The position numbers were made by a program, and so were the translations under genes. Below, in pieces: positions 3,759-17,418 of a stretch of 64,000 nucleotides of DNA; position 1 is the stretch's first letter, and each line of letters opens with the position of its first letter. The notes under the pieces are model-generated. The model had not been told where the DNA came from and ran no database searches. It saw only the letters and a program-made list of their open reading frames with translations. The DNA lies in NCBI GenBank assembly GCA_050329555.1, contig JBHJOQ010000007.1, positions 211 through 64,210 of the forward strand, given 5' to 3'. Origin of the DNA: Acidimicrobiia bacterium. GTDB taxonomy: Bacteria > Actinomycetota > Acidimicrobiia > Spongiisociales > ZC4RG35.

Positions 3759-3779
3759 CTCCTGTGGGGTCGTCGGACT

Positions 3780-3797
3780 TCGTTAGGAAGCTAACGA
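3780..3797. promoter_or_regulatory. Perfect 7-4-7 inverted repeat TCGTTAG-gaag-CTAACGA upstream of hpaD; candidate MarR/HpaR-type operator
   Basis: Read directly in the 43-nt gap between the hpaD start (3758) and the MarR stop (3802). The half-site GCTAACGA recurs at 4387-4394 in the marR/ALDH divergent spacer. Confidence 0.4.
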
Positions 3798-3801
3798 GAT
3801 T

Positions 3802-4347: not shown

Positions 4348-4413
4348 GGCTCTCTTTGTCGTGTGCGGGCAGTTTATCCTTGGCTTGCTAACGACTTCGA
4401 AAACAAGGGCCCG

Positions 4414-5877
4414 ATGCCTTCCACCCGCGCCGAAATATCTCAATACGCAATCTCCCCCGACCACTACATCGACGGGAAGCGGGTCGAGTCGGAGAACACC
4501 TTTGAAGTGCGATCACCTCTCGACTGGGACTGGAAGCTGGCCGATGTCGCCCGCGGCGATCCGCTGATCGCTGACAGGGCGGTGTCCGCCGCAGTGGCTG
4601 CGTTCCCGGCTTGGGCAGCCCTCGGCGTCGAGGAGCGGGGCGTATATCTCCACAGGCTTGCCGACCTCATCGACGAGAACGTCGAGATGATCGCCGCCAT
4701 CGAGTGTGTCGACATGGCGATGCTCCTCGAAAGTCTCGAAGCCCGGGTCATCCACCGAGGTGCGGAGAACTTCCGCAACTACGCCGACCTCGCCGCGGGC
4801 CATGTCGAGCGGAAATGGTCGTCGAAGGGCACCAACAACACGGTGCAACGGATGCCGGCCGGGCCGGCGGTGATCATCACACCGTGGAACGCACCGTGGC
4901 TGCTCTCGACGTGGAAGATCGCACCAGCCCTCGCTGCCGGTAACACCGTGATCCTCAAGCCGGCCGAGTGGGCTCCTCTCTCGGCATCACTTCTCGCGGA
5001 CCTCGCCGCCGAGGCGAAGATCCCGCCCGGGGTGCTCAACATCGTCCAGGGAATCGGCGACGAAGTCGGCGCTGCCCTGGTCGGCGACAAGAGGGTGCGC
5101 CGGATCAGCTTCACCGGTTCACCCGAGACTGCGGTCCATATCGGAGATGCCGCGGCCCGCAACGTCACTCCGTTCACCGCCGAACTGGGCGGCAAAGGCC
5201 CCTTCCTGGTGTTCGCCGACGCCGACCTCGATGCCGCCGCTCAGAAGGCCGCCGGCCAGTTCGACGACGCCGGCCAGGTCTGTCTCGCCGGGACGCGGCT
5301 GCTTGTCGAGGAGTCGGTCAGCAAAGAGTTCTACGAGCGATTCGCCGCCTACACCGACAAACACGTCCTCGGCGACAGCCGGTCAGGGGCGACGACGATT
5401 TCCCCATTGATCCACCCCGAGCACCTGCGGCGGGTCGAGGGTTTCGTGGAACGGGCACGGGAGAACGGCGACCGGATCCTCCGAGGCGGGCAACGCCACG
5501 GTGAAGACGGGCTCTGGTACGATCCGACAGTCATCGCCCCCGCATCCAACCACTCCGAGATCGTCCAGCGCGAGGTGTTTGGTCCGGTCCTCACCTACCA
5601 GACCTTCAAGGACGAGGCGGATGCCATCGACCTGGCCAACTCGACGAGATACGGCTTATCCGCGATCGTCTACACAGGTTCGGCCGACCGCGCCGACCGG
5701 GTGGGACGGGCCATCCGCGCCGGGACCGTCTGGGTCAACACCTTCCTGGTCCGTGACCTGACCGCCCCCTTCGGCGGTTGCCGCCTCTCAGGCATAGGAC
5801 GTGAAGGTGGCGACTACGCCCTCGACTTCCACTCCGACCTGAAAACCCTCCAAATCAGCGAAGGTACAGTGCGGTAG
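4414..5877 (+). CDS. hpaE: NAD-dependent aldehyde dehydrogenase, 5-carboxymethyl-2-hydroxymuconate semialdehyde dehydrogenase-like
   Basis: FTGSPETA, ELGGKGPFLVF, catalytic Cys in GQVCLAGTRLLV, C-terminal VNT..VRDL..PFGG..SGIGREGG as in HpaE-type ALDHs. Start set at MPSTRAEISQY (4414). Confidence 0.85.
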   Translation: MPSTRAEISQYAISPDHYIDGKRVESENTFEVRSPLDWDWKLADVARGDPLIADRAVSAAVAAFPAWAALGVEERGVYLHRLADLIDENVEMIAAIECVDMAMLLESLEARVIHRGAENFRNYADLAAGHVERKWSSKGTNNTVQRMPAGPAVIITPWNAPWLLSTWKIAPALAAGNTVILKPAEWAPLSASLLADLAAEAKIPPGVLNIVQGIGDEVGAALVGDKRVRRISFTGSPETAVHIGDAAARNVTPFTAELGGKGPFLVFADADLDAAAQKAAGQFDDAGQVCLAGTRLLVEESVSKEFYERFAAYTDKHVLGDSRSGATTISPLIHPEHLRRVEGFVERARENGDRILRGGQRHGEDGLWYDPTVIAPASNHSEIVQREVFGPVLTYQTFKDEADAIDLANSTRYGLSAIVYTGSADRADRVGRAIRAGTVWVNTFLVRDLTAPFGGCRLSGIGREGGDYALDFHSDLKTLQISEGTVR

Positions 5878-5878
5878 G
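5818..5878 (+). repeat. Direct repeat copy A: last 19 codons plus stop of the ALDH gene
   Basis: 61 nt aligned by hand to 6119-6179, 56/61 identical. Confidence 0.85.
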
Positions 5879-6118
5879 CACCGGAACGGTTGTGCGCGAG
5901 CTAAGTGGGTAGCGCCATTACCCAGCGGTTGCGGCTGGCTGCCACGTGGTCCGACCCTTGCTCCCATTTGTCAGCGTGTCCGTCGGCGACCAGTCGTTGG
6001 TAGCGGCTGTCACCTTCTAGAGCATTCGATCGGAGCATGTCCGCATGATGTCGCGTTCGTTCGACCACAACACCGAGAAGGTAAGGGCGATCGGCGATGT
6101 CTAGCTCTGCCCCATCAC

Positions 6119-6179
6119 GCCCTCGCCTTCCACTCCGACCTGAAGACCCTCCAGATCAGCGAAGGCTCAGTGCGGTAGG
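6119..6179 (+). repeat. Direct repeat copy B: orphan duplicate of an ALDH 3' end (gene-end relic)
   Basis: Reads ALAFHSDLKTLQISEGSVR-stop in frame. 3 of 5 differences from copy A are synonymous third-position changes. No ALDH body lies upstream of it. Confidence 0.8.
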
Positions 6180-6339
6180 GCCGAGGATCCGCCTGTACCC
6201 GCCCCATAAGTGCCGATCCCGACTGTCCCGGATCCGGCCATCTTTGGACGCTCCATGTGTCATATCGGTAGTCGAAGGAGACGGCAGTTTTCTGTCGCGC
6301 CTAGGCATGAGCGGGTTCGCTCGGAATGACAGCCCTGTG

Positions 6340-6654
6340 TTACTCGAACGGTGGCTGGAGCTGACCGCTCTCGATCGCCTCGGACAGCTCCGTCACGCTC
6401 GAGGCTGCATCCTCCCTATTCCTGACGAGCCGCGTTAAGAGCGGACCTGACTTGGTGTCAACTTGGCGAACTGTGACGATCCACTCCTCTCCTCGTGTCC
6501 GGCGGACAACCGACCAGAGCAGCGCGGTCGCATCGAGCAACACCGATCCCGTACCAAGCTTCCAGTCCTTGGCCATCCCGACGACTTCGTATCGAATTCC
6601 ATCCGGTGCATTGACGACACGGCGAACGTCACCGTTCATAACTCGACACCTCAT
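6340..6654 (-). CDS. Hypothetical small protein (orphan, island-borne)
   Basis: 104-aa ORF in a visibly lower-GC stretch. No motif recognised. Divergent from the 6708 gene. Start could also be the internal MNGDV. Confidence 0.4.
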   Translation of the reverse strand: MRCRVMNGDVRRVVNAPDGIRYEVVGMAKDWKLGTGSVLLDATALLWSVVRRTRGEEWIVTVRQVDTKSGPLLTRLVRNREDAASSVTELSEAIESGQLQPPFE

Positions 6655-6707
6655 ATCATTCCGGACGGCTCACCAAGAGTATTCGTCGAAAGGATGGTGC
6701 GGCCACG

Positions 6708-6968
6708 ATGAAGCAGCAAACAGAACTACCCGATATCAAATCGTCGAAAGTCACGGAGCGGATAAACGCAACCGCCTTCGCGTTGCTCGACAAGCATCCG
6801 GAGGGTCTGAGCTGGACTGACTTGCGAACCAGGATCGAGGAGTCGGACCCCAAATTTCACCCGAAAACGGTGAACGGATGTGTCTGGAAACTTGTCGAGA
6901 GATATCCGGACCGGGTCTACAAGCCATCCAAAGGGCTCTTCCGTTTGCTCAAACACATGCCCGGCTAG
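6708..6968 (+). CDS. Stand-alone winged-helix protein (Mrr_N / HARE-HTH-like)
   Basis: 86 aa. The pattern AFALLDKHPEGLSWTDLRTRIEE...VNGCVWKLVERYPDRVYKPSKGLFRL matches the layout of Mrr N-terminal / HARE-HTH winged helices (recognised by eye). Confidence 0.55.
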   Translation: MKQQTELPDIKSSKVTERINATAFALLDKHPEGLSWTDLRTRIEESDPKFHPKTVNGCVWKLVERYPDRVYKPSKGLFRLLKHMPG

Positions 6969-6993
6969 GCAAGTTTCTTGAATTTTCTTGCCT
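6967..6993 (+). terminator. Hairpin AGGCAAG-N13-CTTGCCT overlapping the stop codon of the winged-helix gene
   Basis: 7-bp stem read directly, in A/T-rich context. The TTG start at 6988 proposed by the ORF track for the next gene lies inside this hairpin. Confidence 0.35.
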
Positions 6994-7032
6994 GCTCGGT
7001 TTCCGAGAGGGTTTCTGTCATACCTGGTTTGT

Positions 7033-8214
7033 ATGTTGTTGGGTATGAGACGGGAAGAGGTTCCCGCTAGGTCTCTTCCCCGCCAGCGGATACAACCAGA
7101 CCAAGCAGCAGCCGAGTCGACCGACACTCTGGCTTCTTGGCTGGTCGGGATCGAAACCGACATCTCAAGGTTGGAACAGAACCGGGTGGTGGTCCTCTCC
7201 GAGTTCGATTCCCGGGACGGTCACAACGTTTACGGCCACCCCTCCACCATTTCGTTCCTCAAAGAAGCCTGCCGGATGTCCGGAAGCAGGGCGAAACGAC
7301 TGGTCCGTAACGCCCGAGCCGCAGCCAAACATGCCGCAACCATGGCGGCATGGCGGTACGGACAACTCTCTGCTGACCAGGCGCAACAACTATTCGACAT
7401 CTCCTATCAAATCCCCGACCGGTATGAAGCGGCGGAACAGGTGCTGATCGACATCGCCGGAGAAACACCCGACGAGACCCGCCAGACCCTGGACTACTGG
7501 AAGAACACCGTCGACCCCACAGGTGTCCACCTGGAACTGGACAACCAGTTGCAACGACGCAGCTTCGAACTGTCCACTATGGCCAACGGGATGATCACCG
7601 GACGCTTCATCATGACCGGGCTGGCCGGAGAAACCTTGAAAACCGCGATCACCAGCCTCCTCCCACCACCAGCAGCCACCGACACCCGGACCGCGACCCA
7701 ACGCCGCCACGACGCCCTAGAAGACCTCGCGGTGAGCTTCCTCGAAACCACCACCACCACCAGCGGCGGAGAAAAACCCCACCTCAACATCCACGTCGAC
7801 TTAGACGCCCTCCAAGCCGAACCCGGAGGACTCCACGAAACCACCAACGGACACGTCCTCCCCGTCGAAACCATCCGCCAAATCTCCTGTGACTGCTCGC
7901 TGACCCGAATCGTGTTCGGCTCCGACTCCGAAATCATCGACCTCGGACGCAAAACCCGGGTGATCACCCCAGCCCAACGCCGGGCCGTCATCGCCCGAGA
8001 CCGCCACTGCACCTGGAGCGGATGCCGCCGACCCGCCGCCTGGTGCGACATCCACCACATCATCCACTGGGCCGACGGAGGCCAAACAATCCTAGGAAAC
8101 CTCACCCTCCTCTGCCGCTACCACCACACCCTCACCCACCAACACGACGCAGCCAAAAGACTCGAACAAGCCATCAAGGAGCAGCCCGCCACCACGGGCC
8201 ACACCAAACCCTAG
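7033..8214 (+). CDS. DUF222 / HNH endonuclease (mycobacterial 13E12-repeat-type protein)
   Basis: C-terminal HNH: RRAVIARDRHCTWSGCRRPAAWCDIHHIIHWADGGQTILGNLTLLCRYHHTLTH. N-terminal DUF222-like helical region. Start set at ATG 7033 (MLLGMRREE). Confidence 0.85.
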   Translation: MLLGMRREEVPARSLPRQRIQPDQAAAESTDTLASWLVGIETDISRLEQNRVVVLSEFDSRDGHNVYGHPSTISFLKEACRMSGSRAKRLVRNARAAAKHAATMAAWRYGQLSADQAQQLFDISYQIPDRYEAAEQVLIDIAGETPDETRQTLDYWKNTVDPTGVHLELDNQLQRRSFELSTMANGMITGRFIMTGLAGETLKTAITSLLPPPAATDTRTATQRRHDALEDLAVSFLETTTTTSGGEKPHLNIHVDLDALQAEPGGLHETTNGHVLPVETIRQISCDCSLTRIVFGSDSEIIDLGRKTRVITPAQRRAVIARDRHCTWSGCRRPAAWCDIHHIIHWADGGQTILGNLTLLCRYHHTLTHQHDAAKRLEQAIKEQPATTGHTKP

Positions 8215-8288
8215 GGGAGACCCCTCCCCCACCGCTCGGACAGAACCCTGAAACCGACAGACCCACATACGCGGAAATTCCCCACCGA

Positions 8289-8312
8289 GAGCCTCCCCCG
8301 TTGAACCGGTCA
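8289..8312. repeat. IS3 left inverted repeat GAGCCTCCCCCGTTGAACCGGTCA
   Basis: Matches the reverse complement of 9546-9569 at about 18/24 positions by hand alignment. Confidence 0.7.
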
Positions 8313-8331
8313 TCTTCTGAAGGAGGTAATC

Positions 8332-8646
8332 ATGTCAACGATGGAGAAACAGAACACGCCAAGTACACGGCGGGTGTTCACTGAGGAGTTCAAGGCCGAC
8401 GCGGTGGCGATGGTGCTCGATGATGGTCGCAAGATCGTCGACGTTGCTGACGCGATCGGTGTCGGCGATGGCACGCTTGGTAACTGGGTCCGATTGGAGA
8501 GGATCGAGCGCGGTGAACGCGCTGGGTTGACCCGCGACGACCGTGCCGAGCTGGTCGAGCTTCGCAAGGAGAACACCCGGTTGCGGATGGAACGAGATCT
8601 ACTCAAACGAGCGACGGCCTTCTGGGTGAAGGAGTCGGGACAGTGA
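8332..8646 (+). CDS. IS3-family transposase OrfA (HTH plus leucine-zipper)
   Basis: 104 aa, FTEEFKADAVAMV...GTLGNWV...ELRKENTRLRMERDLLKRATAFW. SD GAAGGAGG lies upstream. Confidence 0.9.
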   Translation: MSTMEKQNTPSTRRVFTEEFKADAVAMVLDDGRKIVDVADAIGVGDGTLGNWVRLERIERGERAGLTRDDRAELVELRKENTRLRMERDLLKRATAFWVKESGQ

Positions 8647-9539
8647 CCCGCTACAAGTGGGTGGCTGCCCGGAAGGCCGAGGGATTCCCGATCAAGATGG
8701 CGTGTGAGGTTGCCGAGGTCAGCCGCCAAGCGTTCTGTGACTGGCGTAAGAAGCGAGCTGGGGGTCCGACTGATGCCGAAATCGAAGAGGCTGCACTGGT
8801 CGCGGCGATGCGCGAGATCGAAGCCGACTTTGATGACACCTATGGCCAACCGCGGATGACACCAGAACTCCGCGAGCGTGGCTTCGAGGTGAACCACAAA
8901 CGCGTCGAACGCCTGATGCGGCTGCACAGGATCGTCGGGGTGCACAAGCCAGCCAAGGTCCGCACCACGATCCCTGCCGAGGACAACCCGCCGATGCCCG
9001 ACCTGGTTGGGCGCCGATTCGCACCGGGCGAGCCTGATGTTGTTTGGGTGGGCGACATCACCTACATCCCAACCGGCGAGGGCTGGCTGTATCTCGCCAG
9101 TGTGCTCGATCTCGGTTCGAGACGTTGGCTCGGCTACTCGATGGCCAATCACATGCGCACCGAACTCGTCTCCGACGCGTTGAACATGGCGGTGGCCACA
9201 CGCGGCGGCCAGACGAAAGGAACCATCTTCCATGGCGACCGCGGCGCCCAATACATGTCGGGCGACTACCGCAACCTCGTCACCGGCCACGGCATGGTCC
9301 AGTCGGTCGGAAGAACCGGAGTGTGCTGGGACAACAGTGTGGCGGAATCGGCGTGGTCATCGTTGAAACGTGAACTCGTACACCGCTACCGGTTCGCCAC
9401 CCGAGCCGACGCCCGACGGGCCATCTTCGCCTGGATCAACCGCTACAACTCACGCCGTCGGCACTCAACCCTCGGCTACATCGCCCCTATCGCTTGGGAG
9501 GAGCAGTATCGTCAAACCAGGATCAACCGGGCCGCGTAA
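8643..9539 (+). CDS. IS3-family transposase OrfB (integrase core, DDE)
   Basis: DITYIPTGEGWLYLASVLD, HGDRGAQYMS, CWDNSVAESAWSSLKRE. In the -1 frame relative to orfA with a 4-nt GTGA overlap. Confidence 0.9.
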   Translation: MTRYKWVAARKAEGFPIKMACEVAEVSRQAFCDWRKKRAGGPTDAEIEEAALVAAMREIEADFDDTYGQPRMTPELRERGFEVNHKRVERLMRLHRIVGVHKPAKVRTTIPAEDNPPMPDLVGRRFAPGEPDVVWVGDITYIPTGEGWLYLASVLDLGSRRWLGYSMANHMRTELVSDALNMAVATRGGQTKGTIFHGDRGAQYMSGDYRNLVTGHGMVQSVGRTGVCWDNSVAESAWSSLKRELVHRYRFATRADARRAIFAWINRYNSRRRHSTLGYIAPIAWEEQYRQTRINRAA

Positions 9540-9545
9540 TCAACG

Positions 9546-9569
9546 TGACCGGCCAATGGGGGGAAGCTC
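9546..9569. repeat. IS3 right inverted repeat TGACCGGCCAATGGGGGGAAGCTC
   Basis: Starts 7 nt after the orfB stop. Pairs with 8289-8312. Confidence 0.7.
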
Positions 9570-9615
9570 ACCGCTCCACTATTGGACCAGAAGGGAATCT
9601 CCTCCATCACTCTGA

Positions 9616-10098
9616 CTACATCGTCTCGAGCAGTGCGTCCAGCTTCTCGTATCCTTCGTTGATACCTACCTCCATCCCGCTGGCCACGAAGGCGTCGCGG
9701 TCGGCGAAGGAGTCGACCAGAGAGGTCCCCACCAGCCGGGTCCGACCCCCGGGCAGCTCCTCGAAACGGAGCTTCTCGAAGGCAATTCCGTCGGGCATTC
9801 CGTCCCACGCGAAGGTCTGGACGATGAGCTCACCGGGGCGGACCTCATGGAAAGAGCCGTAGAACACGTACTCCTCACCATCGGCGACTGATGCGTAGCG
9901 GTACGAGCCACCGGTGGAGCAGTCGAAATGGTCGACGCGGATGTCGAGATACTTCGGACCCATCCACTTGGCGAAGAGCTCGGCGTCGGTATGAGCGCGG
10001 AACACCTTCTCCACCGGTGCGTCGAATTCCCGGATTATCCGGACCAACGGCACTTCGGTGTCGATGATGATTTCGGTCTCGTGTTTGGTCACTGTCAC
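9616..10098 (-). CDS. SRPBCC / AHSA1-domain protein
   Basis: VTVTKHETEIIIDTEVPLVRIIREFDAPVEKVFRAHTD... Start set at GTG 10098, overlapping the ArsR stop (GTGA). The longer 198-aa ORF overlaps the upstream gene. Confidence 0.85.
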   Translation of the reverse strand: MTVTKHETEIIIDTEVPLVRIIREFDAPVEKVFRAHTDAELFAKWMGPKYLDIRVDHFDCSTGGSYRYASVADGEEYVFYGSFHEVRPGELIVQTFAWDGMPDGIAFEKLRFEELPGGRTRLVGTSLVDSFADRDAFVASGMEVGINEGYEKLDALLETM

Positions 10099-10457
10099 TT
10101 GCTTTCTCCTGTTTTCTTGTCTTCCTGGGCCGGTCCGTCGGGCATGGCCTCGAGCAGGGCGTCGAGCCGGCGATATCTCTCTTCCGCCTGTTGGCGGTAA
10201 CGCTCGATCCATTTGGTCATGAGGTCGAACACTTCCGCATCGAGATGGGCGGGGCGGCGCTGACCTTCCCGGCTACGCGTGACGACCCCGGCGTCCTCGA
10301 GCACCTTGAGGTGCTTGGAGACGGCCTGGAGTGTCACGTCGTACGGCTCGGCTAACTCGTTCACCGTGGCATCCCCGACAGCAAGCCGGGCGACTATGTC
10401 ACGGCGGGTCGGGTCGGCCAATGCCGAAAACACCTGACTCAGCGGATCTGCACTCAC
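10095..10457 (-). CDS. ArsR-family transcriptional regulator (paired with the SRPBCC gene)
   Basis: FSALADPTRRDIVARLAVGDATVNELAEPYDVTLQAVSKHLKVLEDAGVV. GTG start. Confidence 0.9.
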   Translation of the reverse strand: MSADPLSQVFSALADPTRRDIVARLAVGDATVNELAEPYDVTLQAVSKHLKVLEDAGVVTRSREGQRRPAHLDAEVFDLMTKWIERYRQQAEERYRRLDALLEAMPDGPAQEDKKTGESK

Positions 10458-10477
10458 AAAACTCCTTCTCTATATGA

Positions 10478-10544
10478 TCAACTCCTTGGTTGAATAAGAA
10501 CTTACCGGAACCTCATCTGGTTGTCAACCAGCAGGTTGAATAAG
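10478..10544. promoter_or_regulatory. Candidate ArsR operator region: TCAAC-N6-GTTGA, GGTTGtCAACC palindrome, and two copies of GGTTGAATAAG
   Basis: Read directly upstream of the ArsR start: IR 10478-10493, palindrome 10519-10529, direct repeats 10488-10498 and 10534-10544. Confidence 0.4.
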
Positions 10545-10577
10545 CGGCGTACCCACCGGTTCTCCAACTCCCGCAGC

Positions 10578-11360
10578 TCAGCTGCGCAGGGTCGTTCCGC
10601 CCTTCCAGGAGACACCTACCTTGTGGTAGTAACCGCCGATCGTCTCGGCTTCCCGGAGGAGGGCCAGGTCTTCGGTTGGTGAGTCGTAGAGCTCGAGCGC
10701 GGCGTCACCGGACCAGATATCGGCCACTTCCCCGTCGTAGCCGCGCATGGTGACCAATTCGTCCATCGAGTTGGTGCCGTCGGACTCGATGGCCGGCCAG
10801 GCGCGGCTGTGCAGCATCGGATGCCCATTGACGAAACCCGGCCTGTCCGCTGGCTCCCGCAGGGTCACCACCGCCTCAGCAAGCCGCCGGCCGCTAGCGG
10901 ACAACGTTGCACCGAACCGTCCTCCCTCTTCCAATCGCGGCCCGGCGCGGCCCACTGTCACCGGCCGGGTCATCCAGATCTCCCCCAGTTTCTTCGGGTA
11001 GCCCTGGTGGTAGCCCCTGACCAGGGCGAAGTCCTTGTCGACCCAGATGTAGGCGCAGCGGCTCCAGGTCTGGCCCTCCCACTGGCCCCGGATTACCACG
11101 AAACACTCCTTGTACTGGGAACGAACGGGGTCGAGGATCTCGGTGAAGTCATCTCCGCAGCTCTGCCAGTCGGCCCAGATCACCGCCACCGCTCCCGGGT
11201 CATCCGGAGCAGGTTCGACCCCATCGGGGAGCAATTCGGCCACCCGGTCCGGGTCGGTGCGGTATTCGACGGTGATCATCTCTCCCGAGTAGTGCCATGG
11301 CGGTGGCGGGATCAGCGAGGAATTTCCCGTCGGGGATTTCGGAAAGAGGAAGCCCTCCAT
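10578..11360 (-). CDS. Acetoacetate decarboxylase superfamily protein (MppR/Sbi00515-like)
   Basis: Start at MEGFLFPKSPTGNSSLIPPPPWHYSGEMITVEY (typical N-terminus of this family). Its ATG shares base 11360 with the upstream stop (TGATG). Confidence 0.8.
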   Translation of the reverse strand: MEGFLFPKSPTGNSSLIPPPPWHYSGEMITVEYRTDPDRVAELLPDGVEPAPDDPGAVAVIWADWQSCGDDFTEILDPVRSQYKECFVVIRGQWEGQTWSRCAYIWVDKDFALVRGYHQGYPKKLGEIWMTRPVTVGRAGPRLEEGGRFGATLSASGRRLAEAVVTLREPADRPGFVNGHPMLHSRAWPAIESDGTNSMDELVTMRGYDGEVADIWSGDAALELYDSPTEDLALLREAETIGGYYHKVGVSWKGGTTLRS

Positions 11361-12655
11361 CAGAGGAAGGGGAGATACTCGGACATCTCCCAATCTGTCG
11401 TCCAGCTGTTGTAACGCTCCCACTCGGCGCGTTTCACGGTCAGGTATCCGTCGACGAATGCGGGTGAGAGCGCCTCGATCAGGTCGGTGTCGGCCTCGAG
11501 CGCATCGAGGGCGTCGCTGAGGGTCGGCGGGATCACCACATCCGTCGAGGCATTCGCGATGCAATCGAGAGTCTCCACTTCCGGAAGCTCATAGCCTTTC
11601 TCATACCCGAGGCGGGCCGCGGTGAGGATGGTGGCCACCGCCTGGTGCGGAGTCACCGAACCGTCCCCGACCCGGTGCTCGAGCCGGGTCGCTTTGCCCC
11701 GGGACGGGGGCACCCGGACGGTGACGCCGCGATGGTCGTAGCCCCAGTTGGCCCAGTACCCGCACAGGGAACCGGGCTTGAGTCGCTTGTAGGCGTTCAC
11801 TGTCGGGGCGAGGAGACCGGCCATCCCGACGTGGTGCCTGAGCATCCCGGCGATCAGAGAGCGCGCCAGGTCGCTAAGGCCGTCCTTGCTGTCGGCGTCG
11901 GCGATGAGGTTGTTCCCGTCGTTGTCCGCCATCGAAAGGTTGACATGCAGTCCGCTCCCCCCTCGTCCGTTGATCGGCTTGCCCATAAAGGTGAGCAGGT
12001 AACCCATTCGGGCTGCGACTTCTTTGGCCATGACTTTGAAGAGGAAGGCGTCATCGGCGGCGGTCAGGGCATCACGATACGAAAGTGTCAGTTCGAACTG
12101 GCCGTTGTCGTACTCGCTGTTCACCGTCTCCAGGGGAAGCCCGGCCTCATGTGCCTTGTGCATGATGGCGTCGATGATCCCGTGCGGGTCGACGGCCGTG
12201 CCCGTTCCGTAGACGTAGGCGCCAGGCGTGGAGATCGGGTGCCAACCGCCTGCGCCGTCCGGCTCGAACAGGAACGCCTCGGTCTCGATGCCGACCATCG
12301 GGGTGAAACCGTGCGGTTCCCAGGCCTCGATTGCAGACTTGAGGAGGTTGCGCGGGGCAAGGGGCACCGGCTTTCCCTCGCGGGTGATCTCGGGGATGAT
12401 CACCTTCGTATTCGGCTCCCAGCCGGGCCGGGCATTCTCCCATTCGAACTCCGCTTCCAGGTCGGGGAGGCCCTGCCAGAACATCCCGCCGTCATGAGGT
12501 GTCATTTCCCGATCGAAGCCGAGTGTGAACAATGCGAGGCAATGCCCGGTCTGGGTCCGGGAGTCCCTCGGGAGGTACTTGCCCCGGGCGAGACCGAGGT
12601 GATCGGGCCACAACAGTCGCAAACGTTCGTAGTCTTCGGGCACCTTCCTCCTCAC
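11360..12655 (-). CDS. Glutamine synthetase-like ligase (gamma-glutamyl-amine synthetase type, GlnA3/PuuA-like)
   Basis: 431 aa. GIETEAFLF, NSEYDNGQFELT, FMGKPINGRGGSGLHVNLS, NAYKRL, RLEHRVGD. Confidence 0.85.
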   Translation of the reverse strand: MRRKVPEDYERLRLLWPDHLGLARGKYLPRDSRTQTGHCLALFTLGFDREMTPHDGGMFWQGLPDLEAEFEWENARPGWEPNTKVIIPEITREGKPVPLAPRNLLKSAIEAWEPHGFTPMVGIETEAFLFEPDGAGGWHPISTPGAYVYGTGTAVDPHGIIDAIMHKAHEAGLPLETVNSEYDNGQFELTLSYRDALTAADDAFLFKVMAKEVAARMGYLLTFMGKPINGRGGSGLHVNLSMADNDGNNLIADADSKDGLSDLARSLIAGMLRHHVGMAGLLAPTVNAYKRLKPGSLCGYWANWGYDHRGVTVRVPPSRGKATRLEHRVGDGSVTPHQAVATILTAARLGYEKGYELPEVETLDCIANASTDVVIPPTLSDALDALEADTDLIEALSPAFVDGYLTVKRAEWERYNSWTTDWEMSEYLPFL

Positions 12656-12722
12656 TTGGCGCCACAGATCGTAGATGCTTCCCCGGTTGAGCGTGGTTGT
12701 CCGAAATCGCTATCTTGACCGT

Positions 12723-14102
12723 ATGTCGATACCTCTGGAGCCGGATGCCGCGGAGCGATCCGAGCTCAACTCGCGAGCAGAGCGATTCGTCGAAGACTGG
12801 TTCACCCGCACCGCCGACACCCAGGCCGTAGGCAATTCACTGAGCGACACTCAGATGAAAGACCTAATGGCACCGCCCATCGAGGAGGGACGGGCGATGG
12901 GTGAGGTCCTCGACACTCTCGACCTCGCCGGCCAGCCGGGCATCGTCCACCGCTCGGGGGGGCACATGTCTTATATCCCCAACGGAGGGCTGTACACGGC
13001 TGCGCTGGCCGACATGATCGCCGCCGCACTGAACCGGTACACCGGTGTGGCCGTGGCCGCACCAGGGATGACCGCAATCGAGACCGGCATCACCGACTGG
13101 ATTGCCTCCCTGTTCGACCTCGGAGAGTCGGCTGCCGCCATCCTCCTCTCCGGCGGCTCGACCGCCAACCTCACCGCGGTGGTGGCGGCGCGGGTCAACC
13201 GTCTCGGGGAGAGATTCGACGACGGGGTCCTCTACGTCACCACCCACACCCACCACTCGGTGGCCAAAACGGCCCGCATCGCCGGATTCCGCAACGATCA
13301 GATCCGACAGGTGCCGGTCGACGACGACCTACGGATGAGAGTCGACGTCCTCGAGCAGATGGTGGGAGAAGATCGCGATAGAGGTCTGAGGCCGTTTCTG
13401 GTGGTCGGATCAGCCGGCACCACCGACACCGGCACGGTCGATGATCTGGCGGCCGTGTCTCGAGTCGCTAGCGACCAGGACCTCTGGTTCCACACCGACG
13501 CCGCTTACGGAGGGTTTTTCCAGCTGACCCAGCGCGGAAGCAGGACCCTGGCCGGAATCGAGAACTCCGATTCGATCGCGCTCGACCCGCACAAAGGCCT
13601 ATCGATTCCGTTCGGGGTCGGGGCCCTGGTCGTGAAGGACCAGAACCATCTGATCGACGCCAACCACGGCCGCGGGGCGTACCTGGACCACGACGAAGTC
13701 CACCAGGGCCTGCGTGACATCTCCTCACTAGGACCGGAGCTATCCCGTCCGTTTCGCGGCCTGCAGGTATGGCTCCCCCTTCACGTCCACGGGATCGCAC
13801 CCTTTCGCGACGCCCTAGATGAGGCCCTGGACCTTGCGGGCCACGCCTACGAGCGGGTCAGCCACCTCCACGGAATCAGGGCACTTTGGAAACCCCACCT
13901 CTCCATCGCCGCTTTTGGATTCGAGGATGACGCCATCGGCCGGGAGGCAATGGAACGGGTCAACGACGACCGGCTGGTCCACCTCAGCCCGACGGAGGTC
14001 GACGGCCGTTTCGTGCTGCGGATGGCCATCCTCAACCGCCGCACCACCGTCGAGCACGTCGACCATGCCATCGACCTCATCGAAAAGACTCTGATCGGAT
14101 AA
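12723..14102 (+). CDS. Group II PLP-dependent (aromatic-L-amino-acid-type) decarboxylase
   Basis: SGGSTANLTAVVAAR, HTDAAYGGF, PLP lysine in LDPHKGLSIPFG. Start set at MSIPLEP (12723). Confidence 0.85.
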   Translation: MSIPLEPDAAERSELNSRAERFVEDWFTRTADTQAVGNSLSDTQMKDLMAPPIEEGRAMGEVLDTLDLAGQPGIVHRSGGHMSYIPNGGLYTAALADMIAAALNRYTGVAVAAPGMTAIETGITDWIASLFDLGESAAAILLSGGSTANLTAVVAARVNRLGERFDDGVLYVTTHTHHSVAKTARIAGFRNDQIRQVPVDDDLRMRVDVLEQMVGEDRDRGLRPFLVVGSAGTTDTGTVDDLAAVSRVASDQDLWFHTDAAYGGFFQLTQRGSRTLAGIENSDSIALDPHKGLSIPFGVGALVVKDQNHLIDANHGRGAYLDHDEVHQGLRDISSLGPELSRPFRGLQVWLPLHVHGIAPFRDALDEALDLAGHAYERVSHLHGIRALWKPHLSIAAFGFEDDAIGREAMERVNDDRLVHLSPTEVDGRFVLRMAILNRRTTVEHVDHAIDLIEKTLIG

Positions 14103-14111
14103 CGGCCCCAG

Positions 14112-15377
14112 TCAGGCCAGGTCGAATCGCACCGGAAGGTGCTTGATCCCCGAGATGAAGTTGCTCCGGAGGCGATCGGGCTCCCCGAGAATCTCAAAAC
14201 CACTGATTCGGGAGAGAAGCTCCTCGAACACCACCCTCACCTCGAGCCGGGCGAGTGCCGCCCCGAGGCATACGTGGCGGCCGGTGCCGAAGGTGACATG
14301 GTTGTTCGGCGACCGCTTCAAGTCGAGAGTGAAGGGATCGTCAAACACTTCCTGGTCGTAGTTGGCCGACGTATACCAGAGGACGACGCGGTCGCCGGCT
14401 TTCACCGGCACCCCCCTGATCTCGGTGTCGTCGACCACGGTTCGGCGAAAGTGCATGGTGACGGCCGATGCCCGCAGGATCTCCTCGGTTGCTGCCACCG
14501 ACATCGCAGGCGGGTCGGCGTGCCATTCGGAAAACTGAACAGGATGTTTGGCCAGATACACCAGGGCATGGCTGATGGTGTGCCTGGTGGTCTCGTTGCC
14601 GGCCACCATCATCAGGGTGAAGAAGTTCTTGAATTCGAGATCGGTGAGGGGCTGGCCGTCGGGTTCCGCGGTGAGCAGGTCGGTGATGATGTCTTCGCGT
14701 GGGTTGTCCCGGCGCTCAAGGGCGGCCTGTTCGGCGTAGCGGAACACCTCCAGTGCGGCCGGGGAGCGGAAGGGAAGAAGGCGCCACTCCTCGGTATCGA
14801 CCTTGTCGATGATGACCGGGGTGTATTCGGGGTCAGCGTTTGAGATCATTTGATCGCCCCAGGAGACGAGCCTGTCGGCATCTGTCTCAGGCACACCGAG
14901 CAGACGGCAGAGAAGGCGGATCGGCAGCTCCCGTGCGATCTCGGTGACGAAGTCGAACTCGGCTTTCGGCAACACGGTGTCGAGGACCGTACCGGCGAGT
15001 TTGCGGAAAGCGTTCTCGTACGTGGCGACCACTTTGGGGGTGAACCCGGGTGAAACCAGACGGCGGAGACGGGTGTGCTCGGGCGGGTCGTGCTCCATCA
15101 TCGACCGCCGCGCCTCGAGCTCGTCGTCGGACATCTCCTCGATCCTGATCCCCCTTGCGGCGGAGAACCTCCTGTAATCGCGGCTGACCTCAACCACGTC
15201 GGCGTGTTTCGTAACCGCCCAGAACCCCGACCCGTCGGCTTCGGTCACCCACGGGACCGGGTCTTCGTTTCGCAGCCGTTCGAAGGCAGCGTGGGGAAAT
15301 CCCTTGAGATAGGTGTCATGTGAAGTGATGTCGGCGTGGGGGTCGCCGTGGTCTTCGTTGAGTACGTTGGTTGCCAT
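14112..15377 (-). CDS. Cytochrome P450 monooxygenase
   Basis: 421 aa from MATNVLNED (ATG 15377). I-helix MVAGNETT, EILR, heme loop FGTGRHVCLGAALA. The 726-aa ORF in the track is this gene fused to the antisense of the FAH gene. Confidence 0.9.
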   Translation of the reverse strand: MATNVLNEDHGDPHADITSHDTYLKGFPHAAFERLRNEDPVPWVTEADGSGFWAVTKHADVVEVSRDYRRFSAARGIRIEEMSDDELEARRSMMEHDPPEHTRLRRLVSPGFTPKVVATYENAFRKLAGTVLDTVLPKAEFDFVTEIARELPIRLLCRLLGVPETDADRLVSWGDQMISNADPEYTPVIIDKVDTEEWRLLPFRSPAALEVFRYAEQAALERRDNPREDIITDLLTAEPDGQPLTDLEFKNFFTLMMVAGNETTRHTISHALVYLAKHPVQFSEWHADPPAMSVAATEEILRASAVTMHFRRTVVDDTEIRGVPVKAGDRVVLWYTSANYDQEVFDDPFTLDLKRSPNNHVTFGTGRHVCLGAALARLEVRVVFEELLSRISGFEILGEPDRLRSNFISGIKHLPVRFDLA

Positions 15378-15434
15378 GGAATCGTTAAGAAGCGAACATA
15401 ATCGCAACTTGGCACTGATGTGTAGAGGTATAAA

Positions 15435-16316
15435 TTGACCGAGTACCGGAGGATCCTGTTCGACGGGGCCGTAACCAGGGTGCGCCGCGAAGGCGACACG
15501 CTGCTTTCCCCTGATGGGCGGACAGTCCCTGTCGATGATGCAGTGCACCTCGCTCCGGTCGAACCGTCGAAGATCATCGCCTGCCATCTCAACTACCGGA
15601 GCCGGGTGGAGGAATTCATGACGAAACTCCCACCGGCGCCTACGTACTTTCAAAAGCCCACAACGGCCCTCAACTCGCACGGCGGCGATGTGGTCAGACC
15701 CGAACGGTGCAAATACCTCAATTTCGAGGGGGAGATTGCGATCGTGATCGGCGAGACCGCCCGCAATGTCGATCGTGAAGATGCCGGAATGGTCATCGCC
15801 GGCTACACCATCGCCAACGACTACGGCCTTCACGACTTCAGGGACACCGACGCCGGCTCGATGCTCCGGGTGAAGGGATCGGACACTCTCTGCCCGCTCG
15901 GGCCCGGCTTCGTGACCGATTGGGACTTCAGCTCCAAAGAGATTCGCACTCTGGTCAACGGCAGGGTGGTCCAGGAAGGCAACACCGCCGAGATGGAATG
16001 GGACATGCACTACCTGGTGGCCGACCTCGCCCGGACGATCACCCTGCTCCCCGGCGACGTGATCCTCTCGGGGACACCTGCCGGCTCGCGTCCCGTCGAG
16101 CCGGGTGACGTGGTGACGGTCGAGGTCGAGGGGCTCGGAGAGTTGACCAACACGATCGTCACCGGACCGACTCCCGTGGGCGACCGGGTGGGGGCGCAGC
16201 CAAGCGAGTCCGAGGAGGTACTCTCGACAGCGCTTGGTGGGGACTGGGAATTCCGCGGCGTGAGAGCGCCCCGTGGCCCCGGCGCCCAACACTACGAATC
16301 GGAGCTTGAAGAGTGA
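15435..16316 (+). CDS. Fumarylacetoacetate hydrolase family protein (HpaG-like isomerase/decarboxylase)
   Basis: YLNFEGEIAIVIG, GYTIANDYG, GDVILSGTPAG. Confidence 0.85.
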   Translation: MTEYRRILFDGAVTRVRREGDTLLSPDGRTVPVDDAVHLAPVEPSKIIACHLNYRSRVEEFMTKLPPAPTYFQKPTTALNSHGGDVVRPERCKYLNFEGEIAIVIGETARNVDREDAGMVIAGYTIANDYGLHDFRDTDAGSMLRVKGSDTLCPLGPGFVTDWDFSSKEIRTLVNGRVVQEGNTAEMEWDMHYLVADLARTITLLPGDVILSGTPAGSRPVEPGDVVTVEVEGLGELTNTIVTGPTPVGDRVGAQPSESEEVLSTALGGDWEFRGVRAPRGPGAQHYESELEE

Positions 16317-17038
16317 GCAATCCGTTGGTCGGGATCACAGCATGGAGGAGGGAACTCGACACCTTCCTCGGCCGCGAACTGCTCCACACGCTCTCGAATT
16401 ATTACTCGGACGCGGTCATCAACGCCGGGATGACACCGGTCATGTTCCCCAACGGGCAGGACCCGGCCAATGCCGCCCGGTTGGTCGGGCTCGTCGACGG
16501 CTTATTGCTCTCGGGAGGGGACGATGTCGACCCCGAGACCTACGGCGCCGTCGCCGACTCCTCCAAAGGACACCACCGGGATGTGGACGCCTTCGAAATC
16601 GCTCTGGTAAAGGCAGCCAGGGAACAGAACAAGCCGGTCCTGGCGATCTGCAGGGGAATTCAGCTGCTCAACGTTGCATTGGGTGGGACCCTCAACCAGG
16701 AGGTCACCCGGGAAGGCACGGCCCATGAGCCCATATCCGAGGACTCCGATCCCGACACCCTCAACCGCCAGCGCCACCCGGTGCATTTCGAGCCCGGATC
16801 GCTGCTCGCCGACTTCTACGGGACCACGGAGATCAAGACGAACTCCCTGCACCACCAAGGCATCGCCGAGCTCTCCCCGTCACTCATCGTCGAAGGTCGG
16901 ACCGAAGACGGCCTCGTCGAGGCGGCGCGATGCAGCGGCGACTGGTGGGCCCTTGGTGTCCAATGGCATCCGGAGCGGATGGACCCCGCCCATCAAGAGC
17001 CCCTTTTCGGGGCTTTCCGGGCAGCGATCAGCCGCTAA
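16313..17038 (+). CDS. Gamma-glutamyl amidohydrolase, class I GATase / peptidase C26 (PuuD-like)
   Basis: LLLSGGDDVDP, nucleophile Cys in PVLAICRGIQLLNVALGG, GVQWHPE. 4-nt overlap with the FAH gene. Confidence 0.85.
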   Translation: MSNPLVGITAWRRELDTFLGRELLHTLSNYYSDAVINAGMTPVMFPNGQDPANAARLVGLVDGLLLSGGDDVDPETYGAVADSSKGHHRDVDAFEIALVKAAREQNKPVLAICRGIQLLNVALGGTLNQEVTREGTAHEPISEDSDPDTLNRQRHPVHFEPGSLLADFYGTTEIKTNSLHHQGIAELSPSLIVEGRTEDGLVEAARCSGDWWALGVQWHPERMDPAHQEPLFGAFRAAISR

Positions 17039-17366
17039 CGCGCACGCCGGTGGCAAGAGCGGAGCGCAGGCTTTCGAGACGCTCGGGAACCACCCGGTAG
17101 TGCACCCATCTCCCCTGCCGATCACCTTCGACCAGGCCGGCCCGGCGAAGGATCTTGAGATGATGGGAGACTGTCGGCTGCGACAGCCCCAGCGGCGCCT
17201 CCAGGTCACACCCGCAGGCAGTGCCCCCCGGTGCGGCGGCCAGCATCGAGACGATGCGCAGACGCACCGGGTCACCGAGGGCAGCGAAGGTCGCGGCCAT
17301 GTCATCGGCGGCGTCGCTGTCGACCACTCCGTCGAACAAAGGTATGCAGCAGAAATCCATTCTCAT
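17028..17366 (-). CDS. ArsR/SmtB-family metal-sensing repressor, thiolate (alpha3N-like) type
   Basis: MRMDFCC (N-terminal Cys pair), DPVRLRIVSML, alpha3 TACGCDLE, recognition helix QPTVSHHLKILRRAGLV. Start set at ATG 17366 (17360 also possible). Confidence 0.85.
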   Translation of the reverse strand: MRMDFCCIPLFDGVVDSDAADDMAATFAALGDPVRLRIVSMLAAAPGGTACGCDLEAPLGLSQPTVSHHLKILRRAGLVEGDRQGRWVHYRVVPERLESLRSALATGVRVSG

Positions 17367-17418
17367 ATTGACAATAGTCGATACATCGATATAGTTCAAT
17401 ACATTGAAGTTCATCGAT
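17367..17418. promoter_or_regulatory. Three 16-nt boxes ATTGA-N6-TCGAT in alternating orientation, each separated by AC; candidate ArsR/SmtB operator array
   Basis: Box1 17367-17382 ATTGAcaatagTCGAT, box2 17385-17400 ATCGAtatagtTCAAT, box3 17403-17418 ATTGAagttcaTCGAT. They lie in the A/T-rich divergent spacer. Confidence 0.5.

Follow-up and report, generated by a model that had tools for sequence, protein, structure and literature searches.

A gene cluster of an Acidimicrobiia bacterium that may encode a hitherto undescribed pathway for the use of amines derived from tyrosine

A stretch of 64,000 nucleotides from an Acidimicrobiia bacterium (assembly GCA_050329555.1, contig JBHJOQ010000007.1, positions 211 to 64,210; this whole stretch is referred to below as the window) carries a block of six genes at 10578-17038 and, beyond a gap of 4.7 kb, three genes at 2877-5877 that resemble those of homoprotocatechuate meta-cleavage. 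An earlier note, made from the sequence alone, had joined these genes into a route that leads from an aromatic amino acid through a gamma-glutamylated amine to ring cleavage. Our analysis partly supports this proposal: the unity of the cluster, its link to hpa-type genes and the role given to an acetoacetate decarboxylase (ADC)-like enzyme hold up, and the order of steps and the substrate are inferred. Taken as a whole, the cluster appears to encode a pathway, one for which we found no description, by which amines derived from tyrosine are consumed.

All six open reading frames (ORFs) of the block were found in an ORF check of the 64-kb window at the coordinates and on the strands that the earlier note gave, and Pfam and NCBIfam profile searches agree with its families. 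The reverse strand encodes an MppR-like protein of the ADC superfamily (10578..11360; PF06314, 178 bits) and a glutamine synthetase (GS)-like ligase, a putative gamma-glutamyl-amine synthetase (11360..12655; PF00120 Gln-synt_C, 273 bits). These are followed by a forward-strand group II pyridoxal phosphate (PLP) decarboxylase of the aromatic amino-acid type (12723..14102; PF00282, 176 bits), a reverse-strand cytochrome P450 that borders on the CYP125 family (14112..15377; PF00067) and two forward-strand genes, one for a single-domain FAH-family enzyme resembling the HpaG/HpcE decarboxylase/isomerase (15435..16316; PF01557, 185 bits) and one for a PuuD-like C26 gamma-glutamyl amidohydrolase (16313..17038; PF07722 Peptidase_C26, 216 bits). 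Both gene overlaps described before are seen in the sequence: the stop codon of the GS-like gene overlaps the start of the ADC-like gene in TGATG at 11360, and the GTG start of the C26 gene overlaps the FAH stop by 4 nt in GTGA at 16313-16316. The GS-like gene is translationally coupled to the ADC-like gene, and the FAH gene to the C26 gene. Divergent neighbors are separated by spacers of 67 bp (GS-like gene and decarboxylase) and 57 bp (P450 and FAH), and the decarboxylase and P450 genes converge with a gap of 9 bp. A promoter-like site at 15409-15436 (TTGGCA, 16 nt, TAAATT), which is a match to the consensus only, has its end at the FAH start codon, TTG, and would imply a leaderless transcript.

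The three genes on the other side of the gap encode a LigB-type, HpaD-like extradiol dioxygenase (2877..3758, reverse strand; HpaD_Fe, 148 bits against a cut-off of 316), an HpaR-like regulator of the MarR family (3802..4464, reverse strand; HpaR, 53 bits against 121) and an HpaE-like aldehyde dehydrogenase (ALDH) of the ring-fission semialdehyde type (4324..5877, forward strand; HpaE, 482 bits against 638). The best solved relative of the LigB protein is a 3,4-dihydroxyphenylacetate 2,3-dioxygenase (8iq8, 7e-23), followed by the beta subunit of 2-aminophenol 1,6-dioxygenase, and 50% of its residues are identical to those of a Streptomyces canus gene product annotated as HPC 2,3-dioxygenase. 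The ALDH is 62-84% identical to its relatives, and the lengths of related proteins (178-184 aa for MarR, 487-488 aa for the ALDH) indicate that the true starts of both genes probably lie later than those of the longest ORFs. The description of the FAH enzyme as HpaG-like stands, since the C-terminal domain of HpaG is its best curated match, below the cut-off (206 bits against 276); its best solved relative is HpcE (1gtt, 2e-64), and its identity across Acidimicrobiia, Streptomyces and Proteobacteria is 70-82%. Homology searches of the 64 kb found neither a second ALDH nor a second FAH-family gene of the HpaH type; family assignments placed no ORF near the cluster in the HpaI family, for which no directed search was made, and HpaF was not seen. 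A ring-amine route of the 2-aminophenol or aniline type, to which the second-best solved relatives of LigB might point, is not favored, because the FAH, ALDH and MarR proteins are Hpa-like rather than Dmp- or Amn-like and because of the genes of the succinate-semialdehyde dehydrogenase (SSADH) type that follow the putative aldolase in related loci.

The two groups of genes are one cluster split by inserted DNA (5878..10577). In three related loci (L013, L014 and L026) the ADC-like gene is directly followed by the ALDH gene, with LigB next in L013 and L026, so that the 4.7-kb gap of the window is best explained as an insertion. The MarR gene sits between ALDH and LigB in relatives, L026 among them, and other variable genes lie between the two halves in L001 and L002. 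Moreover, a contig from a stromatolite metagenome (L092) that is 99.96% identical to the window over 9569-14360 lacks positions 8288-9568, which shows that the IS3-family element there arrived recently. The 'mobile island' that had been proposed to separate the block from the hpa-like genes is therefore a real insertion. The IS3 element is 1,281 bp long (8288-9568, forward strand; transposase ORFs 8332-8646 and 8643-9539; 307 bits against a cut-off of 160), and the alignment blocks of L092 on either side of it overlap by 5 bases, suggestive of a short target duplication.

To assess conservation, the proteins of the window and of S. canus were mapped onto the 80 best loci around ADC-like homologs, and co-occurrence was counted in the 45 of these loci that have at least 6 kb on both sides. 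Among these 45, a P450 gene was present in 42, LigB in 38, FAH and the HpaE-like ALDH in 33 each and MarR in 27; 27 held a GS-like gene and 4 more a GS-like gene of a second type, C26 was counted in 17, and an ortholog of the decarboxylase in 12. The commonest adjacencies were ADC-P450 (39 loci) and P450-LigB (31); GS and P450 adjoined each other in 12. The six-gene block itself occurs with the same order and orientation in L001, L002, L006 and L023, at 56-86% protein identity. Other lineages hold the same genes in other arrangements: P450-GS-ALDH operons stand beside LigB, FAH, ADC and MarR in metagenome-assembled genomes (MAGs) of Gammaproteobacteria, in Kordiimonas and in Novosphingobium (LigB / P450-GS-ALDH / ADC / FAH-ALDH-Fdx in the last), and GS-P450 pairs stand beside ADC, ALDH, LigB and FAH in S. 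canus, Embleya and Actinomadura, the order on the S. canus plasmid being GS-P450, Fdx-FdR-ADC-ALDH-HPCD-FAH. When the P450 and GS proteins of the window were searched against a plasmid database, their top matches proved to be neighboring genes in the same records. The earlier note had asked for such a survey of gene neighborhoods, and in it the genes do belong together, being co-conserved in several arrangements in Acidimicrobiia, in Streptomyces, Embleya and Actinomadura and in Alpha- and Gammaproteobacteria, with a strong pairing of GS and P450. Such co-conservation across phyla argues strongly for a joint function of P450, ligase and ring-cleavage genes, and we consider it rather probable that the six genes and the LigB-MarR-ALDH group at 2877-5877 make up a single catabolic pathway.

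Some relatives show further variation around this core. In Candidatus Poriferisocius and its relatives (L053, L061, L070, L051 and L060), a sponge-associated variant includes a Liv-type ABC transporter and an ACAD-fold protein with weak matches to HsaA and p-hydroxyphenylacetate hydroxylase; the genes run ADC-P450-LigB-class I GATase, GS, PcaD-like alpha/beta hydrolase, C26, with no FAH or HpaE-like ALDH within 10 kb. This arrangement resembles the hydrolytic branch of meta-cleavage pathways, and homology searches of the window found no ACAD-fold monooxygenase, alpha/beta hydrolase or Liv transporter genes. A GcvT-like aminomethyltransferase gene stands beside the cluster on the S. canus plasmid (L091, 6487-9347, with PurU and FolD) and in L068 (3512-4612), a possible sign that an N- or O-methylated substrate (hordenine, N-methyltyramine or a methoxy-amine, for example) is demethylated with the help of tetrahydrofolate. 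Six MAGs with close relatives of the Acidimicrobiia cluster (L010, L015, L017, L023, L024 and L055) are titled 'Acidobacteriota' or 'Acidobacteria', probably through labeling errors.

One part of the survey bears on whether the locus serves one function or two. A sister lineage (L007, L008, L010, L012, L015-L017, L020, L024 and L027) is without GS and mostly without C26, keeps the decarboxylase, P450, ALDH, FAH, ADC and LigB (the last 80-83% identical to that of the window) and adds an SSADH-type ALDH directly after the ADC-like gene; a DUF1697 gene lies where C26 would be, and L010 and L011 keep C26 without GS. The survival of the P450 and the ring-cleavage genes in this lineage, where GS and mostly C26 are gone, would suit a locus in which the P450 acts with LigB, ALDH, FAH and ADC on an aromatic acid, producing the catechol as a 4-hydroxyphenylacetate 3-hydroxylase or a homovanillate-type O-demethylase; GS, C26 and decarboxylase would then be a second module, Puu-like and devoted to an aliphatic amine or diamine, in which the P450 possibly replaces the PuuB oxidase. 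P450s of Arthrobacter reportedly demethylate methoxyphenylacetates to homoprotocatechuate. PuuD and PuuA are among the best NCBIfam matches of C26 and GS, and that of the decarboxylase is diaminobutyrate decarboxylase, far below the cut-off. Relatives of the P450 in CYP124 and CYP125 oxidize chain termini (PMC12100521). However, the genes are interleaved and translationally coupled across the supposed boundary (GS-ADC, FAH-C26 and P450-GS-ALDH), and they are so in many arrangements and phyla, which is not expected of unrelated modules; in addition, comparison with the PDB places the decarboxylase nearest to aromatic decarboxylases, and the P450 of Ruegeria (see below) travels with GS and not with ring-cleavage genes. 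We regard two functions in one locus as unlikely.

The ADC-like enzyme gives this pathway its most distinctive step. Its best NCBIfam match is MppR (TIGR04460; 238 bits against a cut-off of 380), and the model for true acetoacetate decarboxylases, NF002614, scores 28 bits against 150. Full-length matches in the PDB are MppR (4jm3, 2e-61), Sbi00515 (4zbo, 4e-52) and Swit_4259 (5upb, 2e-28), the sole solved relatives at E<=0.001. Lys123, in the motif YPKK, aligns with Lys156 of MppR, a catalytic lysine that forms a Schiff base. With this lysine kept, and with a closer relationship to MppR, Sbi00515 and Swit_4259 than to true acetoacetate decarboxylases, the protein belongs to the MppR-like branch. 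For these relatives, pyruvate aldolase-dehydratase activity has been reported, in which the lysine forms a Schiff base with pyruvate-type keto acids for aldol-dehydration with aldehydes, and Swit_4259 reportedly hydrates a 2-oxo-3-enoate. Run in the catabolic direction, such chemistry equals the combined action of HpaH and HpaI. Structures and in vitro chemistry are available for Sbi00515 and Swit_4259, and we know of no physiological function for either. An SSADH-type ALDH gene directly follows the ADC-like gene in 10 related loci, as would be expected if the ADC-like enzyme released succinic semialdehyde. Phenol-induced ADC-like genes of Sulfolobus have likewise been proposed to encode meta-cleavage aldolases (PMC7820114). 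Together, these relationships make it likely that the ADC-like protein is a 2-oxo-3-enoate hydratase-aldolase that replaces HpaH and HpaI, which is the best-supported functional assignment of this study and agrees with the hydratase/aldolase-type step suggested for it before. The gene adjoins P450 in 39 loci and FAH in 19. In a scan of one genome per species, based on an alignment of ADC-like proteins, relatives were found in at least 593 species, most of them Acidimicrobiia that have not been cultured and that come from stromatolites, sponges, soil and the sea, together with Streptomyces plasmids and marine Proteobacteria; a protein from one Acidimicrobiia MAG is 100% identical to that of the window. 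The S. canus protein was considered as an ortholog of Sbi00515, which would tie published biochemistry to the cluster, and was dismissed at 154 bits only.

The rank of MppR as the top solved relative also raises a biosynthetic reading, in which the cluster would make an enduracididine-like compound, or a natural product of the gamma-glutamyl-amine kind, or else a precursor of a cofactor, as gamma-glutamyltyramine is for methanofuran; the pairing of a decarboxylase with a gamma-glutamyl ligase does recall MfnA and MfnD. This reading is very improbable. The MppR score falls short of the equivalog cut-off, and nothing in the cluster corresponds to MppP/MppQ, nonribosomal peptide synthetases, other tailoring genes or PLP oxidase or aminotransferase partners. 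What invariably accompanies the ADC-like gene is a set of catabolic genes for ring cleavage, with transporters and a regulator of the MarR/HpaR kind, and the cluster lies in small-genome Acidimicrobiia beside housekeeping genes. An MppR function proper, in enduracididine formation, was rejected for the ADC-like protein on the same grounds of score, missing MppP/MppQ partners and catabolic context.

Neither the GS-like ligase nor the C26 hydrolase reaches the level of a named enzyme. The ligase scores below every equivalog cut-off for GS, PuuA and type III enzymes (213 bits against 650 for PuuA), has the ATP-site signature KPINGRGGSGLHVNLS from residue 226, and is 32% identical to IpuC of Paenarthrobacter aurescens TC1 and 42-47% identical to P450-adjacent GS-family genes of Ruegeria, Tritonibacter and Novosphingobium. 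In the 99.96% identical contig it is called as a protein of 427 aa, which indicates that the start probably lies at 12643; a direct look-up of the window protein gave no match, the start called in databases being a different one. For the C26 protein the best equivalog is PuuD (117 bits against a cut-off of 266), and the expected Cys-His-Glu motifs are present, with Cys113 in CRG and His219/Glu221 in WHPE. It is 38% identical to the product of a C26 gene of Streptomyces lunaelactis that lies downstream of a PuuC-like ALDH gene; in the clusters of S. lunaelactis and S. canus this ALDH gene is directly upstream of C26 with a 4-nt overlap, and its best match is PuuC, at 554 and 568 bits. Across the related loci, second ALDHs of the PuuC type occur almost only where GS is present, and those of the SSADH type almost only where it is absent.

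These operons matter for the order of the steps. The earlier note had the amino acid decarboxylated, the amine glutamylated and hydroxylated by the P450, and the product deglutamylated by C26 and fed into homoprotocatechuate meta-cleavage; turning the free hydroxylated amine into homoprotocatechuate would fall to enzymes encoded elsewhere. Such an order follows the logic of the Ipu pathway, with ligase, P450 and then an amidotransferase-like hydrolase (PMC6776027); all four upper-pathway families are present, and GS and P450 are paired across phyla. Nevertheless, such a sequence calls for two further activities, that of an amine oxidase or transaminase and that of an arylacetaldehyde dehydrogenase, and candidates for neither were seen in the window searches or among the annotated genes of the Streptomyces clusters. 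Homology searches of the 64 kb found no transaminase and no arylacetaldehyde dehydrogenase, and no amine oxidase turned up there, the query set containing no PuuB homolog and hence no directly aimed search for an oxidase. Adding and removing the tag before deamination would also give no obvious benefit, and C26 is coupled to FAH in the window, or to the PuuC-like ALDH in Streptomyces, and not to GS or P450. We consider this order improbable. Instead, the PuuC-like ALDH-C26 operons of Streptomyces point to deglutamylation after oxidation of an aldehyde, late in the pathway, and in the window the coupling of C26 to FAH and of GS to the ADC-like gene favors the same timing. On these gene arrangements, we tentatively prefer an order in which the gamma-glutamyl group would be kept through ring cleavage, while granting it less than an even chance.

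The P450 has a heme-binding motif, FGTGRHVCLG, at 363-372 and AGNETT at 259. Membership of the CYP125 family was taken to require at least 40% identity to members together with a sterol side-chain catabolic context; the window P450 is 53.6% identical to the reconstructed CYP125MRCA (8vxi, 1e-125), and with the extant CYP125 5dqn its identity is 40.7% over aligned residues and 37.8% over all columns. The reconstructed CYP125 ancestor oxidizes sterols (PMC12100521), but a steroid function of the CYP125 kind was rejected for the window P450, as steroid genes are present in none of the loci and its constant partners are GS-like and ring-cleavage genes. A position at the edge of CYP125 says nothing firm about the substrate. 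Compared with CYP125 structures, the protein carries some 12 extra residues behind the PEYTP motif, at residues ~183-205 (VIIDKVDTEEWRLLPFRS). The P450 is 43% identical to the one downstream of GS in S. canus. In line with the earlier note, no redox partner was found near it, and tblastn with the ferredoxin and reductase of S. canus as queries, a search of little power for small ferredoxins, detected no ferredoxin or ferredoxin-reductase homolog in the whole 64 kb; the versions of S. canus, Novosphingobium, Embleya and Gammaproteobacteria do include redox partners. In four loci (L063 15072-19152, L064 4292-6614, L073 15255-20682 and L046 14930-17763) a second, paralogous module of a GS-like gene followed by a P450 gene lies a few kb from the ADC-P450-LigB operon; its P450s are 40-52% identical to that of the window, and the modules sometimes hold two P450s with an ALDH between them. 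It seems, then, that diversification of this P450 lineage went hand in hand with that of the GS-like ligases.

What the P450 does to a gamma-glutamyl amide is the point at which another single-pathway reading departs from ours. On the megaplasmid of Ruegeria sp. TM1040 (L086), positions 11166-14692 hold a module of the form GATase / P450-GS that shares 42% identity with the pair of the window; it stands beside paaABCD and a GntR regulator with no ring-cleavage genes (no LigB, FAH or ADC), and this module may be a feeder from phenylethylamine to phenylacetate in a well-studied roseobacter. GS and P450 could thus act as an oxidative deaminase: the P450 would hydroxylate the carbon next to the amide nitrogen, the carbinolamide would fall apart into glutamine and an arylacetaldehyde, and the aldehyde would pass through (di)hydroxyphenylacetate into classical homoprotocatechuate meta-cleavage, ending in pyruvate and succinic semialdehyde. 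A class III aminotransferase replaces P450 and GS in Salsipaludibacter, where an amidase accompanies it, and in a Nitriliruptoraceae MAG; the proteobacterial P450-GS-ALDH operons have no hydrolase nearby, and the SSADH-type ALDH after ADC in 10 loci fits the final product. C26 would then serve as a safety valve, a function documented for the GAT-like enzyme of aniline dioxygenase systems (PMC11335346). On the other hand, the window has no arylacetaldehyde dehydrogenase and, if the amine is tyramine, no ring 3-hydroxylase, which would then be needed. Oxidative deamination also leaves unexplained the translationally coupled PuuC-like ALDH-C26 operons and the cluster of S. lunaelactis, which has GS, C26, both ALDHs, LigB, FAH and ADC, with no P450 or amine-oxidizing enzyme within the ~38 kb inspected around it. 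The sister lineage, which lost GS and kept the P450, speaks against it too. For these reasons we think it unlikely, and we retain ring hydroxylation as the role that the P450 would play.

The PLP decarboxylase suggests where the amine comes from. Its best solved relatives are the tryptophan decarboxylase of R. gnavus (4obu, 7.5e-57) and then 3,4-dihydroxyphenylalanine (DOPA) decarboxylases, and its best NCBIfam match, diaminobutyrate decarboxylase, is far below the cut-off. The PLP lysine, a PLP-stacking histidine and a loop tyrosine are the marks of a decarboxylase, and substitutions to Phe or Asn mark aldehyde synthases. His177, Lys291 (in DPHK) and Tyr320 align with H192, K303 and Y332 of pig DOPA decarboxylase and are invariant in 22 orthologs, so that by its residues the protein would be an aromatic L-amino-acid decarboxylase and not an aromatic aldehyde synthase. 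The possibility that relatives lacking GS use a variant as an aldehyde synthase was rejected accordingly, 22 of 22 orthologs keeping the His, the Lys and the loop Tyr. Orthologs are restricted to loci whose ADC-like protein is at least 73% identical, that is, to the close clade of the window, which makes the decarboxylase an add-on and not part of the core. Its similarity and its catalytic residues support the aromatic amino acid that the earlier note had suggested as the source of the amine. In S. lunaelactis another gene, of the tyrosine decarboxylase kind, was acquired independently and lies behind FAH, and other actinobacterial versions of the cluster include amino-acid or APC permeases; together with the type of the window decarboxylase, these genes point to a tyrosine-derived amine. 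Between P450 and decarboxylase, relatives carry unrelated genes (NhaA-DsbA, MarR, ArsR-AHSA1, an F420H2 quinone reductase or DUF222).

Besides the IS3 element, the inserted DNA contains a fragment of the 3' end of an ALDH gene (6113-6175; 21 codons, 81% identical to part of the HpaE-like ALDH protein), a DUF222/HNH gene (6988-8214, forward strand), an AHSA1/SRPBCC gene (9616-10212, reverse strand) and an ArsR-type gene (10095-10457, reverse strand). The ALDH fragment lies about 240 bp downstream of the intact gene and looks like a rearrangement remnant at the insertion site. DUF222/HNH genes stand beside the ADC-like gene, in slightly different places, also in L001 (12803-13906), L002 (12161-13231) and L092 (4861-6030), and may be a mobile family that targets this neighborhood. 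At the other end, an ArsR/SmtB-type regulator gene (17028..17414, reverse strand; NF033788, 98 bits) is convergent with C26; it adjoins C26 or FAH in 11 related loci and is a conserved neighbor whose membership of the cluster is uncertain. A plasmid or phage origin of the block was considered and rejected, given a single short megablast match (the S. canus ADC gene) and housekeeping neighbors, namely pyruvate kinase in the window and GatB in relatives.

We propose the following model for the cluster. In the upper part, the decarboxylase would act on tyrosine or DOPA and so produce an arylethylamine, for which tyramine and dopamine are the likeliest candidates; the ligase would gamma-glutamylate this amine, and the P450 would hydroxylate the ring of the resulting amide, for instance converting gamma-glutamyl-tyramine into gamma-glutamyl-dopamine. 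In the lower part, LigB would open the ring of this 4-substituted catechol, the HpaE-like ALDH would oxidize the ring-fission semialdehyde, the HpaG-like FAH enzyme would decarboxylate and isomerize the product, and the ADC-like enzyme, through its Schiff-base lysine, would hydrate the 2-oxo-3-enoate and cleave it by a retro-aldol reaction into pyruvate and an aldehyde. With the gamma-glutamyl group kept on through ring cleavage, this aldolase step would release gamma-glutamyl-gamma-aminobutyraldehyde, whose oxidation would give gamma-glutamyl-gamma-aminobutyrate (gamma-glutamyl-GABA), and the PuuD-like C26 enzyme would hydrolyze the latter to glutamate and GABA. The carbon count for ring-cleaved gamma-glutamyl-dopamine does yield pyruvate and gamma-glutamyl-gamma-aminobutyraldehyde, the substrate of PuuC, and then gamma-glutamyl-GABA, the substrate of PuuD. 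The acyl group would stop the amine from cyclizing onto the ring-fission aldehyde, the same logic as in Puu. The complete scheme of 'protect, then burn the ring', in which the CYP125-related P450 supplies the catechol wherever one is required, gamma-glutamyl-dopamine is meta-cleaved as a whole, an ADC-family aldolase acts last and the route converges on the last two Puu steps to yield GABA, is offered as a speculative possibility whose chances are clearly below even.

Several observations weigh against this model. The sister lineage without GS implies that nearly identical enzymes would act on a carboxymethyl substrate, homoprotocatechuate, and its P450, kept after the loss of GS, may not strictly need a gamma-glutamyl substrate; that loss is a single evolutionary event, however, and a GS could be encoded elsewhere in those genomes. 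The proteobacterial P450-GS-ALDH operons have no C26 nearby, and the arrangements in Ruegeria sp. TM1040 and Salsipaludibacter are better matched by GS and P450 turning an amine into an arylacetaldehyde. In the window there is no PuuC-like ALDH, and no redox partner of the P450 was found. LigB, ALDH, FAH, GS and C26 all lie below every curated equivalog cut-off, and the assignment of second ALDHs to the PuuC type is weak outside Streptomyces, where identities are 39-50%.

If the model is true, an aromatic, ring-cleaving branch would be added to the few amine pathways that depend on gamma-glutamylation (Puu, Ipu, aniline, naphthylamine and ethanolamine). The MppR-like relatives of ADC would gain a testable physiological role, with one protein replacing the HpaH hydratase and the HpaI aldolase, and the P450 lineage at the root of CYP125 would gain a non-steroid function. 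Under the full 'protect, then burn the ring' scheme, the ADC-like relatives in more than 590 species would mark the pathway or its variants, and with so wide a marker the pathway could contribute to the natural cycling of biogenic amines such as tyramine and dopamine. It is open to direct testing in cultured carriers, among them Desertimonas flava SYSU D60003, Kordiimonas marina A6E486, S. lunaelactis MM109, S. canus NBC_00633 and Novosphingobium EMRT-2. Full-text searches, which leave many subscription papers outside their coverage, found no paper on the combination of GS, P450 and homoprotocatechuate genes, nor one on bacterial catabolism through gamma-glutamyl-tyramine or gamma-glutamyl-dopamine.

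The Puu pathway of E. coli (PuuP, PuuA, PuuB, PuuC and PuuD), which converts putrescine to GABA by way of gamma-glutamyl intermediates, shares the GS-like ligase and the C26 hydrolase, to which the Streptomyces versions add the PuuC-like ALDH directly upstream of C26 and an APC/amino-acid permease, and in the favored model its last two intermediates, gamma-glutamyl-gamma-aminobutyraldehyde and gamma-glutamyl-GABA, would be identical. In contrast to Puu, the ligase and hydrolase of the window are far below the PuuA (213 against 650 bits) and PuuD (117 against 266) cut-offs, the single ALDH is HpaE-like with no PuuC-type enzyme beside it, the partners are a P450 and ring-cleavage genes, and the substrate is probably aromatic. 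The Ipu pathway for isopropylamine in Pseudomonas KIE171 and P. aurescens TC1 unites the IpuC ligase, a P450 with ferredoxin and reductase, and the IpuF hydrolase, and the Ipu P450 acts on the gamma-glutamyl amide (PMC6776027). The window has the same three families, but its GS is only 32% identical to IpuC, no ferredoxin or ferredoxin reductase was found in the 64 kb, and the genes are joined to a decarboxylase and to ring-cleavage genes. The aniline and 1-naphthylamine dioxygenase systems (AtdA1-A5, TdnQTA1A2B and NpaA1-A5) place a GS-like GoaS ligase and a GAT-like hydrolase ahead of the oxygenation of an aromatic amine, on which meta-cleavage follows (PMC11335346). Oxygenation there is due to a two-component Rieske dioxygenase that acts on the gamma-glutamyl anilide, whereas a P450 holds this place in the window cluster, and the amine there is on the ring, whereas here it is probably on the side chain. 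The nearest structures to the GS protein of the window do not include NpaA1 (8wwu), and no Rieske oxygenase was noticed among the ORFs beside the cluster in the window and related loci, with no Rieske-specific query having been run.

For the lower part, the nearest system is the homoprotocatechuate (4-hydroxyphenylacetate) pathway (HpaD/E/F/G/H/I/R): the LigB, ALDH, FAH and MarR proteins best match HpaD, HpaE, HpaG and HpaR, and some relatives have an SSADH-type gene after the last enzyme. All four window proteins are below the equivalog cut-offs, so this likeness is one of families only; moreover, the window FAH has one domain and not two, and an MppR-like ADC enzyme stands in the place of HpaH and HpaI. 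That enzyme matches MppR, Sbi00515 and Swit_4259 over the full length with the lysine position kept, but it is an ortholog of none of them, and MppP/MppQ are absent from the cluster. The P450 shares normal heme-thiolate and I-helix motifs with the CYP125 and CYP124 terminal hydroxylases of sterols and methyl-branched lipids, and it differs from them in the insertion of about 12 residues, in a context without steroid catabolic genes and in its GS-like and ring-cleavage partners. An equivalog-level member of none of these systems, the cluster would work like a hybrid of three: the Puu/Ipu pathways, the tag-then-oxygenate strategy of the aniline type and homoprotocatechuate meta-cleavage.

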